Source of the DNA: Pecten maximus
Lineage: Eukaryota
Direction: 5' to 3'
Assembly (NCBI RefSeq): GCF_902652985.1
Contig: NC_047032.1
Coordinates: forward strand, 30,318,001 to 30,382,000
Length of the DNA: 64,000 nt
Below are positions 5,059 through 64,000 of the stretch, in pieces. Each line of letters starts with the position of its first letter. The first letter of the stretch is position 1. The position numbers and the translations under genes were made by a program. Under the pieces are notes generated by a model, which saw only the letters and a list, made by a program, of their open reading frames with translations, did no database searches and had not been told where the DNA came from.

Positions 5059-7550
5059 AACTTTTTACTAATGTCTGTGTTATTTCTGTGTGTAATTCTA
5101 GGTTGCGTGACATCAAATGTCTCCTTTATTTTCACATCTTTACAGTGAGATCGTTACACTCGGAATTAATTCAAAATACAAACATTTTACATAATACCTC
5201 AAATACTTAAGGGTCATCGCAATAGCAAATCCAAGGATATTTACACAAATCGTTAAATCACTACTCTGATGAAATTTAACAGAAGTAACCTGATCAATTG
5301 TTAGTACAGCTGTATGTATATTCATTTTAATCACATGTTTTGCCGAAAATAACAAACAGTTTAACAAATTACATGTCATAAGCAAAGCCCATATTTAATC
5401 ATGACACATACTAAAACTGATCAATTGCTTTCGTTTATTTCCCCAGATTATTGATTTATAATCTTGTGAAAATATAAGTTGATTTGCTATCAAAATGGCC
5501 GTTACTGATGTAATACATACAATCTGTTTTAATTGTCAGCCAGGATAAACGTGTGCATGTATACAGTTATTCGGTATTTTCTTTTTTTGACGACGGGTAA
5601 CAACATTTCTATCACAGGATGTGGTTGTTATTCAAATCACAAGTCAAGATCTAATCGTTACAACAATTGAATAACAAACGGTTTATACCGCACGTGAAAT
5701 AAACTCTTAACGCGATGTGATTGGTTAACACGGTGAATTTTGACCGGGAATACTTTTGTTGTCACATGCTTTAATCCCACGTGCAGATTGTTTACATCAT
5801 ATGCATAAACAAATGCAGATTTGAACAATTAAGCTTACCGACGGCAAAGGGGAACAATACGGACTGCCTCTAAAACAGGTGAACATTTTAGTTTTGATCG
5901 ATATCAAGTAGAATTAGCTTCCTGGCCAAATGTCTACAGAGCTATGGTACAGGTTTGACGTAATACGCCGTGTCCCGGGCGAGGTTTGACGTAATACCGC
6001 CATGTCCCAGGCCAGATGTTACCGTTACGTCAAGGTCGTCTGCTTTCTACCATTACTTTCATTATTGCGTATTATTGATATAAAATCTCATAACAATGAC
6101 CCAGTTCCTTTTGTAGCCAAACGTTGACGTCATTTGATGACGATGAACCTAACAAGTCCCTACTACTACTATATTGCAACGAACACAAATGCAAAAGACA
6201 CCAACAAATGGTACAAGTCAGCCAGCTGGCGTTAATAAACTGGGAAGGTTGACGCGAGCATCATGGCGGAAAATGCAGGTTAGTATAAATTTGAAACAGA
6301 TCAATAATCAGCGAATCACGTGATATAGTGTTTACAACAGGTTGATCACAACCTAGCATATGCAACTACTTTGAGTAATTAATGATTTACTCAAATGCAG
6401 GATAATTCGAAAAAGTAACACCTAACGTTCCTTTATAAAATCAAATGGCGTCATCTTTTGAACATGTCCATGGACACGCCCAGTATCATCCATACAATTG
6501 TACATGTATTTCATCATTCAACCTAAATCAGGTCATTTCCATTGTTTTACTTTCACAGTGTTTTGTTTTAATCTGGCCTGGATTAATAAGTGAAGAAAGC
6601 GAGTGAAAAAAAAGCGATTTGATTTAAACATATTATCAGTGCCATGAATCAAAGCAAATAGGATTTAGCAAAAGTTATAACAACATTATTAAAGCCCTTT
6701 CCCAAATAAGTACAAAAGTTCAACATTTAGCAAAAAAAGTGAAGGTCATCAAATGAGTATTTTTGTGATATTGTTCTCTCCGAAATTCAAAAGCAAAGGA
6801 AGTACAAACATAATTTTATATATTACAATGTATTGAATATATTGCTGGTTTTTAAAGACATGTGCACATTTCAGAAGAACTAAGTGATACAGGCCTGCCT
6901 CCAAAGCAAATCACATGAGTCAGTTTTCATACTTATCACCTTTATACCTTTATAGTTTTCACGCGTACATGAACCAAAAGATAAGTCACAGTGCTTTCAT
7001 TAATAAATGACGAGCTTAGAACGAGAATGTCCCCTTTATATGGAAAAATATAGGATCAAAGCACAAAATAAGATGACAGGATAAGAAACCGATGTCTCAC
7101 AATAAACCAAGTCGAAGTAGACACATATTCCCTTTTCTTGATGTAGATAAGTTTCCGTAAAAAATCTGTAGAGCGTTAATAGTTACTGGACCATTAACTG
7201 TTGTCGAAAGCGTACAATCTCATGGGTTGTCACCCGTGTAAACACACCATCTTCTTGTTCGTTGGGGTCGCTCACTCAGAAAGTTAGGTACGATAATGTT
7301 AAAATAGTAATCCGTTTCTTTGTTACTGTCAGCATTTTGATGATAAACCTTTTCCATACATAAGGTCTGTTAAAAAACATTTTAAATGAATGTGAGTTGA
7401 GCTACTTATGGTTTCAAGATTCAAGATTTTATTTGAACACTCAGACACATGTAAAAGTGTTTACAAGAGGAACACAACAATTTACATTATCGATTATGAT
7501 AGGATGGACAAAAAACAAAAAACAAAACATATTTAATATTCTACTTAATG

Positions 7551-7775
7551 GTTTGGTTTTGGTTTGTTTTTGTTTAACGTCCTATTAACAGCCAGGGTCA
7601 TTTAAGGACGTGCCAGGTTTTGGAGGTGGAGGAAAGCCAGAGTACCCGGAGAAAACCACCGGCCTACGGTCAGTACCTGGCAACTGCCCCACGTAGGTTT
7701 CGAACTCGCAACCCAGAGGTGGAGGGCTAGTGTTAAAATGTCGGGACACCTTAACCACTCGGCCACCGCGGCCCC
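7551..7775 (-). mobile_element. tRNA-derived SINE with V-type core, full length
   Basis: Minus strand has A box TGGCCGAGTGG, B box GAGTTCGAAACC, V-like core ggtggttttctccgggtactctggctttcctcc, tail cgtccttaaatgaccctggctgttaataggacgttaaac and (AAAC)n. 13-bp TSD attctact(t/g)aatg at 7538-7550 and 7776-7788. Confidence 0.9.
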
Positions 7776-8552: not shown

Positions 8553-8774
8553 TTTGTTTGTTTGTTTTTGTTTAACGTCCTATTAACAGCCAGGGTCATT
8601 TAAGGATGTACCAGGTTTTGGAGGTGGAGGAAAGCCGGAGTACCCGGAGAAAAACCACCGGTCTACGGTCAGTACCTGGCAACTGCCCCACGTAGGTTTC
8701 GAACTCGCAACCCAGAGGTGGAGGGCTAGTGTTAAAGTGTCGGGACACCTTAACCACTCGGCCACCGCGGCCCC
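8553..8774 (-). mobile_element. tRNA-derived V-type SINE, second full-length copy
   Basis: Near-identical to 7551-7775. 9-bp TSD tttgaaaca at 8544-8552 and 8775-8783. Confidence 0.92.
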
Positions 8775-9659: not shown

Positions 9660-9985
9660 ACCAAAAATGGTAGGGCGTATTAAAGAATTAATTCGAAAGA
9701 GGCGACTAAATTTAGGATACTATATTTTTTTCTGCTTTCTAAATAACATTTCTTCCTAAGGTATCAATCGACACTGCTGCTCTTTTATTGTTTTACTTTG
9801 CGTTCGACCTTGTGAGAAAAGGTTATAGGTTCTGTAACATGAGAGACAAGGTCTATAATACTATACCTACTGCTCTCTGTCCGACGCTCAGATTTAAATC
9901 TGGTGAGCTAACCAGTCCTTGATGTGTCCTAGGTTCTGTGATAACCGGAATAACGGTGTTAAACCCCAACAATCGATCCATCCGT
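9660..9985 (+). mobile_element. Old degraded relative of the composite retroposon at 42982-43520
   Basis: Shares ggtagggcgta, aagaggcgactaaa, the pyrimidine tract ttcttcctaa, a decayed tRNA head (tgtgagaaaaggttataggttctgt), tactgctctctgtccgacgctcag and a gttaaac tail, in the same order. Confidence 0.6.
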
Positions 9986-10974: not shown

Positions 10975-11130
10975 GAAGCAGGAGCGGAAACTACCATTAT
11001 ATGGAATCTTGACAGGGAATGCAACCCAAAGCCTTCCTCCCATGATCGAACACTCTACTAAAGGCCTGCTTTGAGGCTGTATCAAAGGACGAAGAATATT
11101 TTTTTAAATACGCCCTACCAATAGGGCAGT
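10975..11130 (-). mobile_element. Degraded, internally deleted copy of the same composite retroposon
   Basis: Minus strand reads tgccctattggtagggcgta ... gaggaaggctttgggttgcattccctg ... aatggtagtttccgctcctgctt. Confidence 0.55.
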
Positions 11131-14871: not shown

Positions 14872-15540
14872 GTATGTATTGTTTAACGTATTGGCAGCCT
14901 CCTCTGTGTGGGTATGTTTTACTTTGTATTGTTAAACATCCTATCAACGGATATAGTTATTTAAGGACGGTCTCCCCTGTGTGGGTATGTTTTAGTTTGT
15001 ATTGTTTAACGTATATTAACAGCGTTAGTCATTTAAGGGCAGACTCCTCTGTGTGGGTATGTTTTACTTTGTATTATTAAACATCCTATCAACGGATATA
15101 GTTATTTAAGGACGGTCTCCCCTGTGTGGGTATGTTTTAGTTTGTATTGTTTAACGTATATTAACAGCGTTAGTCATTTAAGGGCAGACTCCTCTGTGTG
15201 GGTATGTTTTACTTTGTATTGTTAAACATCCTATCAACGGATATAGTTATTTAAGGACGGTCTCCCCTGTGCGGATATGTTTTAGTTTGTATTGTTTAAC
15301 GTATATTAACAGCTTTAGTCATTTAAGGGCAGCCTCCCCAGTGTGGGTATGTTTTAGTTTGTATTGTTTAACGTATATTAACAGCGTTAGTCATTTAAGG
15401 GCAGACTCCCCTGTGTGGGTATGCTTCGTTTAACATCATATCATCAGCTATGGTCACTTAAGGGCAGACTCCCCTGTGTGGGTATGGTTTGGTTTGTATT
15501 GTTAAACATCATACCAACAGCTATGGTCATTAAAGGACGA
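14872..15540 (-). repeat. About 72-bp satellite derived from the SINE 3' tail, with a 145-bp dimeric higher-order repeat
   Basis: Monomers align to the reverse complement of 43440-43520 (tgtttaacgtcctattaacagctaaggtcatttaaggacggcctccc). The variant catcctatcaacgg recurs at 14937, 15082 and 15227. Confidence 0.85.
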
Positions 15541-40524: not shown

Positions 40525-42981
40525 CTAATGCCTTGTGTATGACTATGAGAGTGTAGTTATCACACTAAGATAATGGTGTAATGGGTTACGTGTATCCCCC
40601 ACATCTCATTGACGACCTCTCGGATCGTCAGACAATGTCTTCAAATCTGATCTCTGTCGTTTTATCTATGTCGAAACCGCAGGAGATTTGTATTTACAAT
40701 ACACATATCATTGTAATTATTTGTCGGCTTTGTCGGTGATTTATTTATTGGGGAAATCTTAAACACGCGGCTTTTACAAGTAACGAACGTAATTAACGTC
40801 TTGTATTCCCGGAGCGCTATACTTCACGTGAAAGTAGTCTTTAAAATCACGTGTTTATAATCACGCGCGAATCTCCAATATTTTGACATAGCACAGTGTT
40901 TGTCTTCAGCGCTCAGATAAATTAAAGTCAGACGGAGATCAAAAGATTTGAGGATGTTGTCGGGAGGTCCAAGGATATGGAGTCGGCCATTTTCTTATAA
41001 CGGGTTACTTAAGTAGCATTTAACCTCAAAACAATTCCAACGGAAGATGCGTTGATCAAACTACATAACATATCCAGAAAATACATTCATCTCTAAATGT
41101 TCCAAAGGATTTTTTTTCTTTTAATTACTTCAAAGTAGATGGCCTAGCTATATAGACCTATTGGCAAATTAATTAATTCGCCAAGGCAACGACAGTTCAT
41201 TTTCAATTCATCACAAGATCAACTTCATACATCGCCCTCCAACATCGACAGCGCAAGGTTTAATTGGAACCGGGGCGTTCACTTACATATCTACCAATAA
41301 TAACTACGCATAAAAATATAGTCCGTCATTAAACAACCATTTATAAAGACTATTATAAAAATAGATACTCATTAATAGGACATTTTCATCATCAGAAGAT
41401 AAGTTAGAGTAACTTCTTAAAAGAGGTATGGTCGTTTTCCGCTTATCCTGACCTTGGCCACGGACAACATAGTCTGGGCTAAAAATACAGGTCAATATCA
41501 TGTGACCCCAGTGATTCCCAGTACCAAAATAGATCGTCATGGTCCATTGGCGCGCTGTGTGTTGTGAACGGATTACTTGTATATAGTCAATCAATACCAT
41601 ATGAAATAAAGTTAAATTGACATGTTAAATTAAACACTACTCATTCATGTATGCCTGAGGTCGACGCTGCAGTTCATTCACATTTCACTTTGAATGGTTT
41701 GGAGTAAATCGGTTATGATTTCACTATTTTTTTTTTGTCCAAGTGAAAATTAACTAACTTAAAACTAAATATTTTATATTAGATATGCATTTAATGTTAA
41801 AAAAATTCTTTCAAATATGACCAAGAAAAATTAAATGGTATTATTCTTAAACATAATAAAATATGAATCAGATACATCTTGGTGATTCGAACTCGGAACC
41901 TTCGGGTTGCTAAGCGATGGCTCTACCATATGAACTATGCTGACTTATAGGAATGTGATGATCATGTTATACATTATAGTCAGTCTGCTAAACGCGAAAA
42001 TTAGATATTTTATCAACTACGTTTTTTCAATTTGTCGATACCAGCGCATCGGAGGACCCCTTTTTAAGAATAGGATTTTAGTTGTCTTTTGGTACATATA
42101 ATAAAATAAGACATGGTAAAATTGGTCTTCCGATGCGCTCTGTGTCAAAAAATGATATGAATGCGGGAAAACCCCCCTCGAAAGTTGCAAATAGCCCGAT
42201 GATGCAACTTTACGGCCATTTAATGAAATATCCATTGCAATGGACGAACAAATTTTTCGCAAATAAGACATTTTATATGTTATAGATTTAAAGTTTGTAT
42301 TCAAAAACTAACTTTTTACCAATAATTTTTTAATTTTGAAAACGGTCACCATTAGGTCGAAACAGGCCAATATGCGCCATACCGCTTTGTAAAATACTTT
42401 TTGAATTTCTACAAAAGTGTTGGATTACCTGTGATGAGAAAGACACAAAGTAAAAACATATACACAGTGTACGAAGAATGTTGTGTGCTGCAGGATTGAC
42501 CACATATTTTCTATTGTTCTTTAAAAAGACAAGTTGAAATTGTATCTTTTCCTGATGTTCTGTTTGACTCCTCAGTGAATGCATACTCTGAAACAGTGTG
42601 TAGCCTACCTTGTACCTACATATGTATCTCAGCGGTTATTTGGTGTTAAATATTTGATAAATATGGAGAATTCAAAAGCATCAATCTCCCCCTATCTCGG
42701 GTTTACATCCCCTGAGGCTTCTATACAATAGACATGATTAGTCTAACGGTATCTGAAGCAGTTCTATTTCCCCATAAACTGTTAATTAGGTCCAACAGTT
42801 AACTACAGTCAAGAGCTCCAGTGAGACAATACTCCAAATGAATCTCCTACAAAAATATCCCTGTGGTTTTTATACTCTCGCCCGGGCTCTCAGTTGTCCA
42901 TAGAGATGCATACATACAGCGAGCTGGTGTCAGGTCCATATCGTCGTTCTTTCGTTTTAGTTTCCCTTCGCTTCCTTCTTG

Positions 42982-43520
42982 TCCTGCCCTGCAGGTGGGG
43001 CGTAAGAATCGTACCTGCTGCCCCCATTGCATGATCGTAAGAGGCGACTAAACTTGGGATCTTATCTTTTCTCTTCTTTCTTAACAACTTTCTTCTTCCT
43101 AATGTCTCCCTTGACAATGCCTCACTTTTGGCCTTAAGTTGAGCGTTCTCCCCTGTGAGGAAGGCTTTGGGTTCTGTCCCCTGGCCGAGACATACCAGAG
43201 TCTTTAAAAATGGTAGTTGCTACTCCTGTTTAGCGCTCAGCATATTTGGAGTGGAACGACTGGTTCGCCCGTTGTCAGTATAATGTGACCGGGTGGGGTG
43301 TGCTGCTGGGTGTCTTCGGCAGTATGCTTCAGTGAGGTAGCACTATAAATCGGCAAAAGTTCCGGCCTATCACAAGGAGACTTAACACGAACATACCGCA
43401 GCCTCCCAAAACACACATACGCACTCACCACACGCATGCATGCCGCACGCACGGGAGGCCGTCCTTAAATGACCTTAGCTGTTAATAGGACGTTAAACAA
43501 AATATCCCAAACCAAACCAA
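42982..43520 (+). mobile_element. Composite retroposon: structured non-tRNA 5' head + decayed tRNA head + Meta/Deu(Nin)-like body + shared LINE-type tail
   Basis: 9-bp TSD tccttcttg at 42973-42981 and 43521-43529. Meta-like taaaaatggtagttgctactcctgtttagcgctcagcat. Deu/Nin-like cagtataatgtgaccgggtgggg...cttcagtgaggtagcactataaa. The tail matches that of the V-SINEs and is followed by (AAACC)n. Confidence 0.85.
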
Positions 43521-43544
43521 TCCTTCTTGACGCTGTCTGTCATG

Positions 43545-44560
43545 GGCTGTGGCACTAACCGTTGGCGCGCTGGGATGCCTGTTGGCGCGATGGGGATGCC
43601 TGTTGGCGTTGTAGCACTAACTGTTGGCGCACTGGGATGCCTGTTGGCGCGATGGGGATGCCTGTTGGCGTTGTGGCACTAACCGTTGGCGCGTTGGGGA
43701 TGCCTGTTGGCGTTGTGGCACTAACCGTTGGCGCGTTAGGGATGCCTGTTGGCGTGTTGGGGATGCCTGTTGGCGCGATGGGGATGCCTGTTGGCGTTGT
43801 GGCACTAACCGTTGGCGCGTTGGGGATGCCTGTTGGCGTGTTGGGGATGCCTGTTTGCGCGATGGGGATGCCTGTTGGCGTTGTGGCACTCACCGTTGGC
43901 GCGTTGGGGATGCCTGTTGGCGCGATGGGGCTGCCTGTTGGCATTGTGGCACTAACCGTTGGCGCGGCGAAGATGCCTGTTGGCGCAGTGGGGATGCCTG
44001 TTGGCGCGATGAGGATGCCTGTTGGCGTTGTGGCGTAACATGTTGGCTCTACTTATTGGTGCTGTTGCGCTACCTGTTGATGCTATGGTGTTGTCTGTTG
44101 ACACTGTGGCGTTGCCTGTTGGCGCTGTGGCCTTGCCTGTTGGCGTTGTGGCCTTGGCTGTTGGCGCTGTGGCGTTGCCTTTAGGCGCTGTGTAGTTGTC
44201 TGTTGGCTCTGTGGCCTTGTCTGTTGGAGCTGTGGCCTTGCCTGTTGGCGCTGTGGCCTTGTCTGTTGGTGTTGTGGTGCTGCCTGTTGGCGCTGTGGCC
44301 TTGCCTGTTGGCGCTGTGGCCTTGTCTGTTGGTGTTGTGGTGCTGCCTGTTGGCGCTGTGGCCTTGCCTGTTGGTGTTGTGCTGCTGCCTGTTAGCGCTG
44401 TGGCCTTGCATGTTGGCGCTGTGGCCTTGTCTGTTGGCGCTGTGGCCTTGTCTGTTGGAGCTGTGGCCTTGCCTGTTGGCGCTGTGGCCTTGTCTGTTGG
44501 AGCTGTGGCCTTGCATGTTGGCGCTGTGGCCTTGCCTGTTGGCGCTGTGGTGCTGCATGC
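43545..44560 (-). repeat. GC-rich 21-bp-unit array in two sub-arrays; encodes PTGIPNA/PTGKATA heptads on -
   Basis: Core cctgttggcg every 21 bp; sub-arrays at 43545-44037 and 44055-44560. Confidence 0.9.
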
Positions 44561-46427
44561 TGACGCTCTAGATCTGCTGCTGTTGTGTTTGGTTATTTCT
44601 ATGATTATTTGATTTATTTTCTGTGTACACTTTTCTAGATTGGTTTTATAGACAGATTCGGTGTGCACACCAAATGAAGCATGTTTGACTAAAAGATAAA
44701 TATATAATTCATAATAAATAAGATAAATACAATTTGTTGGCTTAAGAATCCATCATCTCATATCATCACATGCCGTCGTTGTTTGTAACGACAATGTTGA
44801 TTGGCTTTGTGGTCTTGAAGTACATCTTGCATGACATATTCAGTCATATCCATGTCAATCAAATGATCAGAATCAAACTGATTGATTTGTTTTCACGTTT
44901 CGAAAACATGACAAAAAGAAAAGCAGAGTATACTAACCGCTGCTTCGAGGTTTATTTTGTACGTGATCGTATTTGTATTTTTACCCTATTAGGTTAACTG
45001 CCATTAATATAAACCTTAATGTAGAATATACATGGAGGTAGATTCTAACACATTGTCATTAATATTAGTAATTTGACGGGACGATTTTATAGTCAATACT
45101 GGTCCATGTTCTGTACAGCTTGCTGTATCGGTACGTAACTAGATATATGTACATAAGTCGTATATAGAGTATACCGAGGACTAGCCTATCATACCTACCT
45201 TATAGGTATGGGGAGTTTACCGAGAACTAGCCTATCATACCTACCTGATAGGTATGGAGAGAGTTGTATCATCAGGTGTCAGACATACCGATCCTAAACT
45301 GATGCTACTTCACTATCTGGAATTACACGAGATTTCTCCACCAGCACGGTACAGGTAGATATACAGGTAGATACTAATAATACAAAATTTGCAAAAGGAT
45401 TTTCTTATAAATTTGTTTATTTTTATGTGTCATAAACTACAATAAGGTTATGTATAACATTAGCGTGTCTTTTGTTACCAGGAACGTATATCCATAGTTA
45501 TCTCATAATCGGCCTGTTATCCAGTGAATTCCACCGTGTATTCAATCAAAAGTAGATTGTGACGTCATAACACAGACTGTTGTGTTATATCATGAATTGT
45601 AATGGTGCAATAAAATGGCTGCCTTCGTTTGTTTTTGCCTTCAACATTTTGACTTTAAACATGTCAAAATGTAACTTTTCTAAGTTATAAAATAGAAGCA
45701 TTTTTTTTCCATTTCCTATGAGATTTTCATAACTCGTTTTTTATTTTTTTTAATTCTGCAATCCTTTTTGAAATGTTAACTTGTTTACGTCCTTTTTATA
45801 CGCATATATACTGAAATACTGTACAAATACAAATATACAATGTACATGATATATATCTGTAGGATAATTTGATGGTACTTAACAATGCAAATAAAATTTG
45901 GAATGAAATATATGTATACCATCGATCACTTACTATACGATAATATTGTCTCCCTGTTTGATAGAGTCTGATAAATTCTCTGACAAAAATTAGTTATTTG
46001 TTCCCTTTATTTTTAATTATTATAGCTAACTAATGTTTACAGTGTATCACATTAATTGTATTATCACTATAAACTTCATCATTGATCATCACCATTTCCT
46101 AAACGATCGATGATCGATTACTGATCAATCATGATCATGGGCAGAAAGGGAAATATCTGCACAAAATATTAACCAAAATAGGGGAAAATGTTGTGGACAT
46201 GCTTTAAGGCATCTAGATATGTTTTCAAATAATATTTTAATGCATTTTTATTTCAAATAACCAATGATATTGTTCATTTATTAATTTTTGAAGAAGGCTG
46301 TAGATCTTGACAATGTCCAATGAATGATCGATCACAAAACACAAAAATAAATCATAATCGATTTGTGATAATTAGAGGTAAAACGACTAATCATTGATTA
46401 CTCGGAGCACACTAGTCAAAATAACAT

Positions 46428-57541: not shown

Positions 57542-57714
57542 GGGCTGCGGTGGCCGAGTGATTAAGGTGTCTCGACACTTTATCACTAGCCCTCCACCTC
57601 TGGGTTGCGAGTTCGACACCTACGTGGGGCAGTTGCTTGGTACTGGCCGTAGGTCGGTGGTTTTTATCCGCCACTCCGGCTTTCCTGGCACGTCCTTAAA
57701 TGACCCTGGCTGTT
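57542..57714 (+). mobile_element. V-type SINE, third copy, diverged and 3'-truncated
   Basis: Aligns to the 7551 and 8553 copies, with an internal deletion between cct microhomologies and no tail end. Confidence 0.85.
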
Positions 57715-57967
57715 TATCACACAAGGAAGATTTCTCAATGAGATCCTGGTGTCGACAGTGAATCCCCCACATGTACTTCACAAATTTACATCTCTCAAAA
57801 AATGTGTCGTTAGTTTCCCCCATCGGTAGTCGCCATTTGTCAAAGAAATCGTGAAAATATAATGACTTTCTAGATATTGGATCAAATCGGACATAGGTAG
57901 AGTGGTGATGCTATAATTCTTAGAAATTTGAGAATCGTCACGCCTACCTATCACGATATCAGCTCTG

Positions 57968-60586: not shown

Positions 60587-63500
60587 TACCAGGGTAACAC
60601 ACTCCCTCTCCGTCTGTAATAAGTCGGTAATAAGTAGCTGGTATCTTACCAGGGTGACACACTCCCTCCCTGTCGGTAATAAGTCGGTAATAAGTAGCTG
60701 GTATCTTACCAGGGTGACACACTCAATCCCTGTCGGTAATAAGTCGGTAATAAGTAGCTGATATCTTACCAGGGTGACACACTCCCTCCCTGTCGGTAAT
60801 AAGTAGCTGATATCTTACCAGGGTGACACACTCCCTCCCTGTCGGTAATAAGTCGGTAATAAGTAGCTGGTATCTTACCAGGGTGACACACTCCCTCCCT
60901 GTCGGTAATAAGTCGGTAATAAGTAGCTGGTATCTTACCAGGGTGACACACTCCCTCCCTGTCGGTAATAAGTCGGTAATAAGTAGCTGGTATCTTACCA
61001 GGGTGACACACTCACTCCCTGTCGGTAATAAGTCGGTAATAAGTAGCTGATATCTTACCAGGGTGACACACTCCCTCCCTGTCGGTAATAAGTAGCTGGT
61101 ATCTTACCAGGGTGACACACTCCCTCCCTGTCGGTAATAAGTCGGTAATAAGTAGCTGGTATCTTACCAGGGTGACACACTCCCTCCCTGTCGGTAATAA
61201 GTCGGTAATAAGTAGCTGATATCTTACCAGGGTGACACACTCCCTCCCTGTCGGTAATAAGTCGGTAATAAGTAGCTGATATCTTACCAGGGTGACACAC
61301 TCCCTCCCTGTCGGTAATAAGTCGGTAATAAGTAGCTGGTATCTTACCAGGGTGACACACTCCCTCACTGTCGGTAATAAGTCGGTAATAAGTAGCCGGT
61401 ATCTTACCAGGGTGACACACTCCCTCCCTGTCGGTAATAAGTCGGTAATAAGTAGCTGGTATCTTACCAGGGTGACACACTCCCTCCCTGTCGGTAATAA
61501 GTCGGTAATAAGTAGCTGGTATCTTACCAGGGTGACACACTCCCTCCCTGTCGGTAATAAGTCGGTAATAAGTAGCTGGTATCTTACCAGGGTGACACAC
61601 TCAATCCCTGTCGGTAATAAGTCGGTAATAAGTAGCTGATATCTTACCAGGGTGACACACTCCCTCCCTGTCGGTAATAAGTCGGTAATAAGTAGCTGAT
61701 ATCTTACCAGGGTGACACACTCCCTCCCTGTCGGTAATAAGTCGGTAATAAGTAGCTGGTATCTTACCAGGGTGACACACTCCCTCACTGTCGGTAATAA
61801 GTCGGTAATAAGTAGCCGGTATCTTACCAGGGTGACACACTCCCTCCCTGTCGGTAATAAGTCGGTAATAAGTAGCTGGTATCTTACCAGGGTGACACAC
61901 TCCCTCCCTGTCGGTAATAAGTCGGTAATAAGTAGCTGCTATCTTACCAGGGTGACACACTCCCTCCCTGTCGGTAATAAGTCGGTAATAAGTAGCTGGT
62001 ATCTTACCAGGGTGACACACTCAATCCCTGTCGGTAATAAGTCGGTAATAAGTAGCTGATATCTTACCAGGGTGACACACTCCCTCCCTGTCGGTAATAA
62101 GTAGCTGGTATCTTACCAGGGTGACACACTCCCTCCCTGTCGGTAATAAGTCGGTAATAAGTAACTGGTATCTTACCAGGGTGTCACACTCCCTCCCTGT
62201 CGGTAATAAGTCGGTAATAAGAAGCTGATATCTTACCAGGGTGACACACTCCCTCCCTGTCGGTAATAAGTCGGTAATAAGTAGCTGATATCTTACCAGG
62301 GTGACACACTCCCTCCCTGTCGGTAATAAGTCGGTAATAAATAGCTGGTATCTTACCAGGGTGACACACTCCCTCACTGTCGGTAATAAGTCGGTAATAA
62401 GTAGCCGGTATCTTACCAGGGTGACACACTCCCTCCCTGTCGGTAATAAGTCGGTAATAAGTAGCTGGTATCTTACCAGGGTGACACACTCCCTCACTGT
62501 CGGTAATAAGTCGGTAATAAGTAGCCGGTATCTTACCAGGGTGACACACTCCCTCCCTGTCGGTAATAAGTCGGTAATAAGTAGCTGGTATCTTACCAGG
62601 GTGACACACTCCCTCCCTGTCGGTAATAAGTCGGTAATAAGTAGCTGGTATCTTACCAGGGTGACACACTCCCTCCCTGTCGTTAATAAGTCGGTAATAA
62701 GTAGCTGGTATCTTACCAGGGTGACACACTCAATCCCTGTCGGTAATAAGTCGGTAATAAGTAGCTGATATCTTACCAGGGTGACACACTCCCTCCCTGT
62801 CGGTAATAAGTAGCTGGTATCTTACCAGGGTGACACACTCCCTCCCTGTCGGTAATAAGTCGGTAATAAGTAACTGGTATCTTACCAGGGTGTCACACTC
62901 CCTCTCTGTCGGTAATAAGTCGGTAATAAGTAGCTGATATCTTACCAGGGTGACCCACTCCCTCCCTGTCGGTAATAAGTCGGTAATAAGTAGCTGATAT
63001 CTTACCAGGGTGACACACTCCCTCCCTGTCGGTAATAAGTCGGTAATAAGTAGCTGGTATCTTACCAGGGTGACACACTCCCTCACTGTCGGTAATAAGT
63101 CGGTAATAAGTAGCCGGTATCTTACCAGGGTGACACACTCCCTCCCTGTCGGTAATAAGTCGGTAATAAGTAGCTGGTATCTTACCAGGGTGACACACTC
63201 CCTCCCTGTCGGTAATAAGTCGGTAATAAGTAGCTGATATCTTACCAGGGTGACACACTCCCTCCCTGTCGGTAATAAGTCGGTAATAAGTAGCTGGTAT
63301 CTTACCAGGGTGACACACTCCCTCACTGTCGGTAATAAGTCGGTAATAAGTAGCTGATATCTTACCAGGGTGACACACTCCCTCCCTGTCGTTAATAAGT
63401 CGGTAATAAGTAGCTGATATCTTACCAGGGTGATACACCCCCTCCCTGTCGGTAATAAGTAGCTGATATCTTACCAGGGTGACACACCCCCTCCCTGTCG

Positions 63501-64000
63501 GTAATAAGTAGCTGATATCTTACCAGGGTGACACACCCCCTCCCTGTCGGTAATAAGTAGCTGGTATCTTACCAGGGTGACACACCCCCTCCCTGTCGGT
63601 AATAAGTCGGTAATAAGTAGCTGATATCTTACCAGGGTGACACACCCTTTCCCTGTCGGTAATAAGTCGGTAATAAGTAGCTGGTATCTGACCAGGTTGA
63701 CTCACTCCCTCCCTGTCGGTAATAAGTAGCTGATATCTTACCAGGGTGACACACCCCCTCCCTGTCAGTAATAAGTCGGTAATAAGTAGCTGGTATCTTA
63801 CCAGAGTGACGCACTCCCTCCCTGTCGGTAATAAGTAGCTGATATCTTACCAGGGTGACACACTCCCTCCCTGTCGGTAATAAGTCGGTAATAAGTAGCT
63901 GATATCTTACCAGGGTGACACACTCCCTCCCTGTCGGTAATAAGTAGCTGGTATCTTACCAGGGTGACACACTCCCTCCCTGTCGGTAATAAGTCGGTAA
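60587..64000. repeat. 60-bp satellite (49-bp variants) with higher-order blocks, running off the window end
   Basis: Unit cttaccagggtgacacactccctccctgtcggtaataagtcggtaataagtagctggtat with an internal 11-bp duplication (gtcggtaataa). Confidence 0.98.

Follow-up and report, generated by a model that had tools for sequence, protein, structure and literature searches.

Internal promoters and HDV-like or twister ribozymes only partly answer how a defined 5′ end arises in promoter-less LINEs and SINEs. In pectinoid scallops, MESC SINEs of ~520 bp carry a first 68 bp that match the 5′ ends of Nimb-17_LMi, I-3_DR and RTE-9_CPB, and the same 68 bp head LP-SINEs in snails, oysters and a fly (PMC4758252, Matetovici et al.). 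The authors proposed that this head is a Pol II promoter, asked for experiments and noted a parallel with L1Tc (PMC4758252). The ~70-bp head common to Nimb/RTE LINEs and LP-SINEs was still a puzzle in 2016, to which a covariation-backed fold can now be added. Two other groups of structured RNAs are relevant. HDV folds have been proposed to shield the 5′ end of R2 RNA from exonucleases (PMC11331408). Viral xrRNAs usually lie at the start of the 3′ UTR, and Xrn1 halts at the base of P1 in those of class 3 (PMC12397905); Coremin xrRNA-C occurs in 3′ UTRs that include those of tombus-like and noda-like invertebrate viruses (PMC10520033).

The window analyzed here, a stretch of 64,000 nucleotides of the Pecten maximus genome, contains a full-length SINE that is the element described in PMC4758252. 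A length of ~520 bp, a Nimb-17-like 68-bp head with the published sequence, the CT-rich spacer, the tRNA remnant, the MESC core, variable TSDs, a short-repeat tail and a high copy number all recur, and by-eye comparison of positions 42984-43520 with the Chlamys copies in Fig. S2 of that paper gives block-by-block agreement. The SINE starts at C42984, 2 nt 5′ of the P1 stem. The first-pass annotation, made from the letters of the window, rightly recognized the head as the 5′ module of a retroposon. It also suggested that the module may be uncatalogued, which holds for Rfam, where the head has no family, but not for the sequence itself, already published together with the SINE (PMC4758252). New here are the covariation-backed fold, the viral copies and the swap with HDV-like folds; the parts of PMC4758252 that give an account of the head contain no RNA structure, viral copies or ribozyme-fold swap. 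Neither the fold nor its viral copies nor the swap was found in Rfam or in the literature searched, which also yielded no paper with the motif string, a search outside which most subscription papers, Repbase reports and preprint supplements fall. The coordinates of all features are collected in Table 1.

Table 1. Features of the SINE, its head module and related elements. Positions are those of the window unless a locus is named.
Feature	Position	Strand	Evidence or remark
Left TSD	42973..42983	+	10/11 identical to right TSD 43521-43531
Right TSD	43521..43531	+	1 mismatch vs left TSD
Full-length pectinoid MESC SINE with LINE-type head, 537 bp	42984..43520	+	
Structured head module (predicted): two tandem pseudoknots plus conserved hairpin	42984..43058	+	60.5 bits, model R1; covariation
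P1: GCCC 42986-42989 / GGGC 42998-43001; U42990 is the 1-nt loop 1	42986..43001	+	register in other families by eye
PK1, 7 bp: 42991-42997 / 43012-43018	42991..43018	+	116/133 in 19 carriers; 41/42 in six viruses
Conserved AGAAU linker, usually 1 nt 5′ of the PK1 3′ strand	43005..43009	+	fixed spacing in 15/19 carriers
P2: UGC 43019-43021 / GCA 43029-43031, directly adjoining PK1	43019..43031	+	55/57 paired; double changes
P3, second pseudoknot: CCCA 43023-43026 / UGGG 43055-43058	43023..43058	+	best-run sum 74 vs 54.5, 18 carriers
P4 hairpin G(A)UCG-UAAGAGG-CGAC, then UAAA	43033..43052	+	search anchor, so invariance is partly by construction
CT-rich spacer with TTTT run at 43067	43059..43119	+	spacer described in PMC4758252
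Decayed tRNA-derived segment; B box GTTCTGTCC at 43171, 2 mismatches; TTTT at 43126	43120..43192	+	
MESC core domain, bounds approximate	43200..43310	+	by eye vs Fig. S2 of PMC4758252
Tail ending in (AAACC)n	43488..43520	+	
Decayed copy of this SINE that retains P1, with deletion of the hairpin and of the PK1 partner	11023..11129	-	tRNA part, 67 nt: 74.6%
Decayed copy that retains the hairpin but has lost the PK1 partner and the P1 5′ strand	9668..9835	+	72.8%
Sister LINE family 1	L620:927-1046; also L618, L621, L622, L626, L629, L631, L634-L639		
Sister LINE family 2	L610:806-945; also L611, L615-L617, L619, L623, L625, L627, L630		
Tandem-module SINE family	L217, L218, L227, L228, L233		

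A 16-mer from the head has 4010 exact matches in the P. maximus genome (918 Mb), against 0 for its reversed control, and the SINE is present in the assembled contigs of two RNA libraries, which show neither starts nor strand. Two bases are private to the window copy: among the 42 ungapped heads obtained from 70 loci examined, position 42997 is A in 41 instead of G, and position 43010 is T in all 42 instead of C. The tRNA remnant, in which ARAGORN detects no tRNA, begins 136 nt inside the SINE, and the element lacks both the intact 5′ A and B boxes and the freedom from internal T runs that characterize tRNA-headed Pol III SINEs. With a decayed tRNA remnant and two internal TTTT runs, its transcription by Pol III is unlikely. 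The first-pass annotation had also invoked two older copies. Both exist, the one on the minus strand (11127-11112, gccct-attggt-agggc) with the stem retained around a different loop and the other at 9694-9709 on the plus strand, but neither serves as evidence for the pairing, since each has lost the PK1 partner strand; the covariance model does not match the former and gives the latter 12 bits.

Several other repeats accompany this SINE. Copies recur at ~2.4-kb spacing at L029, L030 and their neighbours (8.81 Mb of one P. maximus contig) and on another contig near 25.82 Mb, and are therefore carried inside tandem repeats. Within the window, segments at 14929-15539, 7549-7610 and 8566-8606 on the minus strand and 57691-57717 on the plus strand match only the SINE 3′ tail, seven fragments of which lie in a tandem array near 15 kb. 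A GC-rich minisatellite of tgttggcg-based units with several stop-free frames (43555-44570) begins 25 nt past the right TSD, and overlapping open frames of 126-308 aa on the minus strand at 60723-63519 possibly belong to a broken transposable element. Elsewhere in the genome, locus L214 joins a variant head, with a longer linker and a P3 of CCCAC/GUGGG, to a MESC-like body, which suggests a second capture of the head.

The case for a structure beyond chance comes from comparison across families rather than from single-sequence folding, as the lone 75-mer folds no better than its shuffles (z -0.42, with a program unable to form pseudoknots). A 15-mer scan returned at least 120 metagenome loci and 26 viral-collection loci, and the P. 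maximus genome supplied further families. Nineteen carriers were compared, each through one well-preserved, hand-picked copy: four viral heads and 15 retroposon-type heads chosen from 34 metagenome clusters and P. maximus loci, with registers taken from sequence anchors. Along the RNA, the helices follow the order P1-PK1-P1′-PK1′-P2-P3-P2′-P4-P3′. The consensus runs from P1 through a U, the 7-nt 5′ strand of PK1 and P1′ to a variable insert, which continues into AGAAU, one nucleotide, the 3′ strand of PK1 and P2; then come a linker, P3, P2′, a U, the hairpin GUCG-UAAGAGG-CGAC, UAA(A) and P3′. Upstream of the AGAAU linker, insertions as long as ~65 nt are accommodated.

Three of these helices pair better than shuffled partners. 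In PK1, 116 of 133 positions are paired across the 19 carriers, against 81.9 after shuffling (0 of 20000 shuffles reach 116), and 91 of 105 against 63.9 in the 15 carriers with fixed spacing; P2 is paired at 55 of 57 positions against a shuffled mean of 36.3, with no shuffle reaching the observed value; and the best Watson-Crick runs of P3 sum to 74 against 54.5 in 18 carriers (0 of 5000 reach 74), all of which are counts and not probabilities, since the carrier families are related and the copies hand-picked. An alignment of 10 sequences is 94% paired, with 7 pairs and 21 cells changed on both sides (6.7 cells when shuffled), and sliding the partners leaves only 25-49% paired. The P4 stem shows no covariation in the alignment count. 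Its loop takes the forms UAAAAGG, UAGAAGG and UAAAGGG and, outside the chosen carriers, varies as UARRRGG. Carriers L076 and L136 pair poorly in PK1, and the fixed register gives 4 of 7 PK1 pairs in L470 and 3 of 7 in L469, both of which are paired in the model alignment at the cost of one indel each. These comparisons argue that the head is a real, well-supported RNA structure, with a predicted fold of two pseudoknots plus a hairpin. The 4-bp stem with its 7-nt U-A-R-R-R-G-G loop recalls a T-loop arm that, speculatively, could dock the AGAAU linker.

Most of the pairing proposed in the first-pass annotation survives this comparison. The stem gccct (42986-90)/ggggc (42997-43001), its loop gcaggt (42991-96) and the complementary acctgc (43013-18) all lie where it had placed them, as do gcccc (43020-24), tcg-taagagg-cga (43035-47), ctaaa (43048-52) and ccca (43023-26)/tggg (43055-58), and the compensatory changes between loop and hexamer that it had named as a check appear in PK1 across families. 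Its ccca/tggg pairing stands as well, but the helix UGC/GCA that it missed turns this pairing into a second pseudoknot. The suggestion that gcccc acts as an alternative partner and switches the fold does not hold, because in other families what follows the loop partner has a different sequence and makes up P2 and P3; four such pairs remain possible in the scallop family, and the segment is unconserved elsewhere. Neither an HDV-like nor a pistol topology had fitted by hand, and the helix order indeed differs from both. Pistol ribozymes need a P2 strand that separates the linker from the loop partner; here, the PK1 partner follows AGAAU by 1 nt. Rfam returned no gathering-level match in the window and, at relaxed E values (up to 5-10), chance matches only, in a test whose modest sensitivity is evident from two HDV-like LINE heads that it also missed.

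Retroposon copies start close to this fold. In a survey of 70 loci chosen regardless of their 5′ end, 35 gave a TSD call; relative to G42986, 17 of these junctions fall at -3 to +1 (nine at -2, five at -1), eight lie further inside and 10 further upstream, many of the last in tandem repeats. None of the 15 precise junctions (-3 to -1) carries an extra G, which weakly argues against a capped template. In three families (n = 20, 28 and 44), which begin with G, A and C, respectively, and start 1-2 nt outside P1, conservation breaks off precisely 7 nt upstream of the first PK1 base; the edge is less sharp in family D (n = 10). With the same distance and different first bases, the 5′ end of the copies is thus set by distance from the fold, not by a shared base. 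Both the TSD junctions and this edge agree with the earlier expectation that element ends cluster just upstream of the stem.

The module also heads LINEs. Locus L470 is an intact two-ORF element in which the module is followed by a leader of ~550 nt, a 449-aa ORF1 containing three CCHC knuckles, and an RVT_1-bearing frame of 1238 aa; it is host-type DNA within the assembly of a bivalve symbiont. On that bacterial scaffold (L470/L609, 518900-524600), the full-length and apparently intact animal LINE is likely an assembly contamination. The three strong prokaryote-collection matches, L468-L470, were accordingly rejected as bacterial copies and look like host DNA in symbiont MAGs. Two P. maximus LINE families share 44-48% ORF1 identity and collinear leader blocks with L470, and differ from it at the very 5′ end. 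The first (13 loci) begins at G1 of a textbook HDV-like arrangement, identified by eye and with a loose descriptor: P1 GGUCUC/GAGACU, P2 GAAAGCU/GGCUUUC, P3 GGG/CCC, the loop UCCACGU, GG, and J4/2 GCAGAA. A block identical at 22 of 22 nt follows this HDV-like fold and, in L470, directly follows the module. The second family (10 loci) starts with CUUCCGG, its first base being C instead of G, and has a less canonical HDV-like fold, recognized by eye only (P2 GAUUACU/AGUAAUC, P3 ACC/GGU). Rfam matched neither of these heads (L620-type and L610-type). As the module is exchanged with HDV-like folds between sister LINEs, it seems to fill the slot in which LINEs make their 5′ end. None of 30 ORF1-homologue loci in P. 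maximus starts with the module, so these yielded no autonomous partner LINE, and the strong model matches in that genome are SINE heads.

Such an exchange invites the reading that the module is a new class of 5′-cleaving ribozyme that would cut the element from read-through transcripts just upstream of P1, much as the first-pass annotation had imagined a 5′ processing ribozyme. Like the HDV-like ribozymes of R2, RTE and L1Tc/ingi (PMC6765202, PMC11331408), the module is a double pseudoknot at the first base of a LINE and is exchangeable between sister families; its near-invariant unpaired bases and the sharp starts of its copies are also in keeping with catalysis. HDV-like ribozymes perform such cutting in R2, RTE and L1Tc (PMC6765202), and one has been reported from Chilo iridescent virus (PMC8256844). 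Unlike them, the module consists of two tandem H-type knots instead of the nested order P1-P2-P3-L3-P3′-P1′-P1.1-P4-J4/2-P2′, lacks the HDV elements P3, L3 and P1.1 and a fixed purine G1, and also occurs in viral 3′ UTRs; a loose HDV descriptor gave only low-grade, non-shared matches in the window and L470. Cleavage is further disfavored by a second, older P. maximus SINE family of ~400 bp that is composed of two or three tandem modules and a short tail. Its internal modules have the loop UAGAAGG and a long insert, and at L227 a 12-bp TSD encloses the whole array, which cutting would split. The first base is not fixed (G, A or C), the conserved positions are distant from the end, no Rfam family was found and, in the five RNA viruses described next, cutting 5′ of the module would detach the genomic 3′ end. 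We therefore regard self-cleavage as rather unlikely, the viral 3′-UTR position and the tandem copies having lowered its likelihood.

Viral copies were sought with R1, a covariance model built from 10 retroposon heads only, with viruses held out. It was run over viral-collection loci from 72, 98, 93 and 73 sources, the set of 93 including five prokaryote-collection loci, and gave strong matches of 40-67 bits in six viruses, with the other viral-collection matches listed at or below 25 bits; with looser viral patterns, the 98, the 73 and most of the 93 loci were mostly chance, and two new viruses were among the matches listed. Five carriers are RNA viruses: a contig with a Peptidase_A21 capsid (two near-identical records), Hubei tombus-like virus 21, a contig with RdRP_3, Shuangao toti-like virus, and a contig whose frame of at least 959 aa has no Pfam match but, on visual inspection, an SDDG motif. 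Each of these five carries the module in sense orientation, 4-99 nt past the last stop codon, with the contig end 30-122 nt away, and one of them has a second copy in tandem. The sixth carrier is an iridovirus of 212,482 bp, which has the module in an intergenic spacer (L461:2455-2530) between two same-strand ORFs, downstream of a NAD-dependent ligase region and ~110-140 nt upstream of a long ORF; there it could act for the 3′ end of the upstream gene or the leader of the downstream one. Across the six viruses, P1 has 3-5 contiguous pairs in every copy, and pairing extends to 41 of the 42 positions in PK1 and to 22 of the 24 in P2, values reached by one and four of 720 pairings, respectively; in two of the viruses, P3 is weak or missing.

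Since an RNA virus never passes through a DNA stage, the module must function at the RNA level. This weighs on the proposal that the LP-SINE head works as DNA, namely as an internal Pol II promoter for which the RNA fold is of secondary importance. The 5′-terminal position suits a promoter, and tandem heads occur in promoter-type LINE leaders. The head replaces tRNA heads in several molluscs and a fly (PMC4758252), and the 77-nt head of L1Tc is both promoter and ribozyme (PMC3383444). A dual promoter and RNA role is possible. A purely DNA promoter, which the first-pass annotation had also listed, cannot explain copies maintained in RNA viruses, nor is it reflected in the compensatory changes of three helices, the varying first base and the absence of an extra G at junctions; we consider it improbable. 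Equally improbable, in our view, is a recognition site for the carrier's own polymerase, which would be the LINE ORF2p at the end of cDNA synthesis and the viral RdRp, or capsid, in viruses. The terminal position in both kinds of carrier is compatible with it, and the R2 protein binds a 5′ pseudoknot (PMC12222951), but the carriers of one and the same hairpin sequence, which are Nimb and RTE LINEs, an iridovirus and viruses of tombus-like, toti-like and tetravirus-like kinds, have unrelated enzymes. A hairpin shared by such carriers points instead to a factor of the host or to something intrinsic to the RNA.

A further reading concerns translation. A cap-independent, ribosome-recruiting element would act as a 3′ enhancer in uncapped viruses and from the 5′ leader in LINEs, and SINEs would borrow it to reach ribosomes making LINE protein. 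The position past the viral stop codon, the ~550 nt that separate the module from ORF1 in L470, the location ahead of the long iridovirus ORF and the resemblance of the near-invariant hairpin to a factor-binding site are all consistent with such a role, and HDV-like heads are reported to promote translation (PMC6765202). We nonetheless judge it unlikely. It leaves unexplained why noncoding SINEs with decayed Pol III boxes start exactly at P1, and 3′ CITEs are described as plant-virus-specific (PMC12397905), whereas the carriers that bear a name here are an iridovirus, Hubei tombus-like virus 21 and Shuangao toti-like virus.

One function must serve both the first base of a retroposon and the start of a viral 3′ UTR, and a barrier to exonucleases fits both. 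We thus tentatively favor, at somewhat less than even chances, the reading that the 75-base head blocks the 5′-to-3′ exoribonucleases Xrn1 and Xrn2, thereby defining and shielding the RNA's 5′ end. Exonuclease resistance was absent from the options of the first-pass annotation and fits more of the evidence, namely, helices that covary, copies that start sharply at the base of P1, a location in viral 3′ UTRs, tandem copies and the swap with HDV-like folds. Under this reading, the SINE, with its Pol III boxes decayed, would ride as a passenger in transcripts made by host Pol II. Degradation arriving from upstream would halt at P1, and the unit-length, uncapped RNA left behind would be copied by a LINE reverse transcriptase up to its final base. 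RNA viruses would obtain a short 3′ subgenomic RNA from the same fold, as they do from the xrRNAs of flaviviruses and plant viruses. Docking onto the first pseudoknot, or binding of a host factor, is the probable role of the near-invariant hairpin loop. A barrier of this kind would likely give the SINE RNA an exact start without a promoter of its own.

Described xrRNAs resemble the module in part. Those of classes 1-3 are pseudoknotted, in sense orientation, located at the start of viral 3′ UTRs and sometimes tandem (PMC12397905). Class 3 also shares a 5′ stem-loop whose loop pairs downstream and an RNA end at the base of P1 (PMC12397905). Unlike classes 1 and 2, the module has no three-way junction among its covarying helices; unlike class 3, it lacks the J1/2 bulge, P2 and the T-loop-like docking of L2B inside the stem-loop, its P1 loop of 8-10 nt being nearly all taken by PK1. 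It resembles Coremin xrRNA-C in having a small GUC...GAC hairpin with an AAA-containing spacer after it, and in occurring in 3′ UTRs (PMC10520033), but its loop, UARRRGG, starts with UA and not YG and so departs from the YG..AD pattern, and its hairpin comes last, at the 3′ end, where that of Coremin is 5′-proximal and precedes the spacer and a second hairpin. Copies start ~50 nt upstream of the hairpin. A second pseudoknot with an inserted hairpin and a location at the head of host retrotransposons set the module apart from described xrRNAs, and no report of an xrRNA in host retrotransposons was found in the literature searched.

Other observations weigh against the barrier. Ordinary H-type frameshift pseudoknots do not stall Xrn1 (PMC10321173), so a 5′ pseudoknot alone proves nothing, and the fold matches no described xrRNA class, the ring around the 5′ end that defines xrRNAs being only presumed here. 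A promoter or a ribozyme should give sharp starts too, the folds exchanged with the module are themselves those of ribozymes, and only about half of the TSD calls fall within the narrow interval around the base of P1. Located 50 nt from the RNA end, the near-invariant hairpin region of 19 nt resembles a site of binding or catalysis more than a mechanical barrier.

To conclude, with slightly more reserve than for the barrier itself, we propose that the module may represent a new xrRNA class common to LINEs, SINEs, RNA viruses and an iridovirus. It would replace a promoter or HDV ribozyme and leave maturation of the RNA to a host decay enzyme, a third way to start a LINE. If Xrn1 resistance is true, this is a new xrRNA fold and, as far as the literature searched goes, the first in host retrotransposons; if self-cleavage is true, it is a new ribozyme class. 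Either outcome would provide a compact natural 5′ module for RNA-templated gene insertion.
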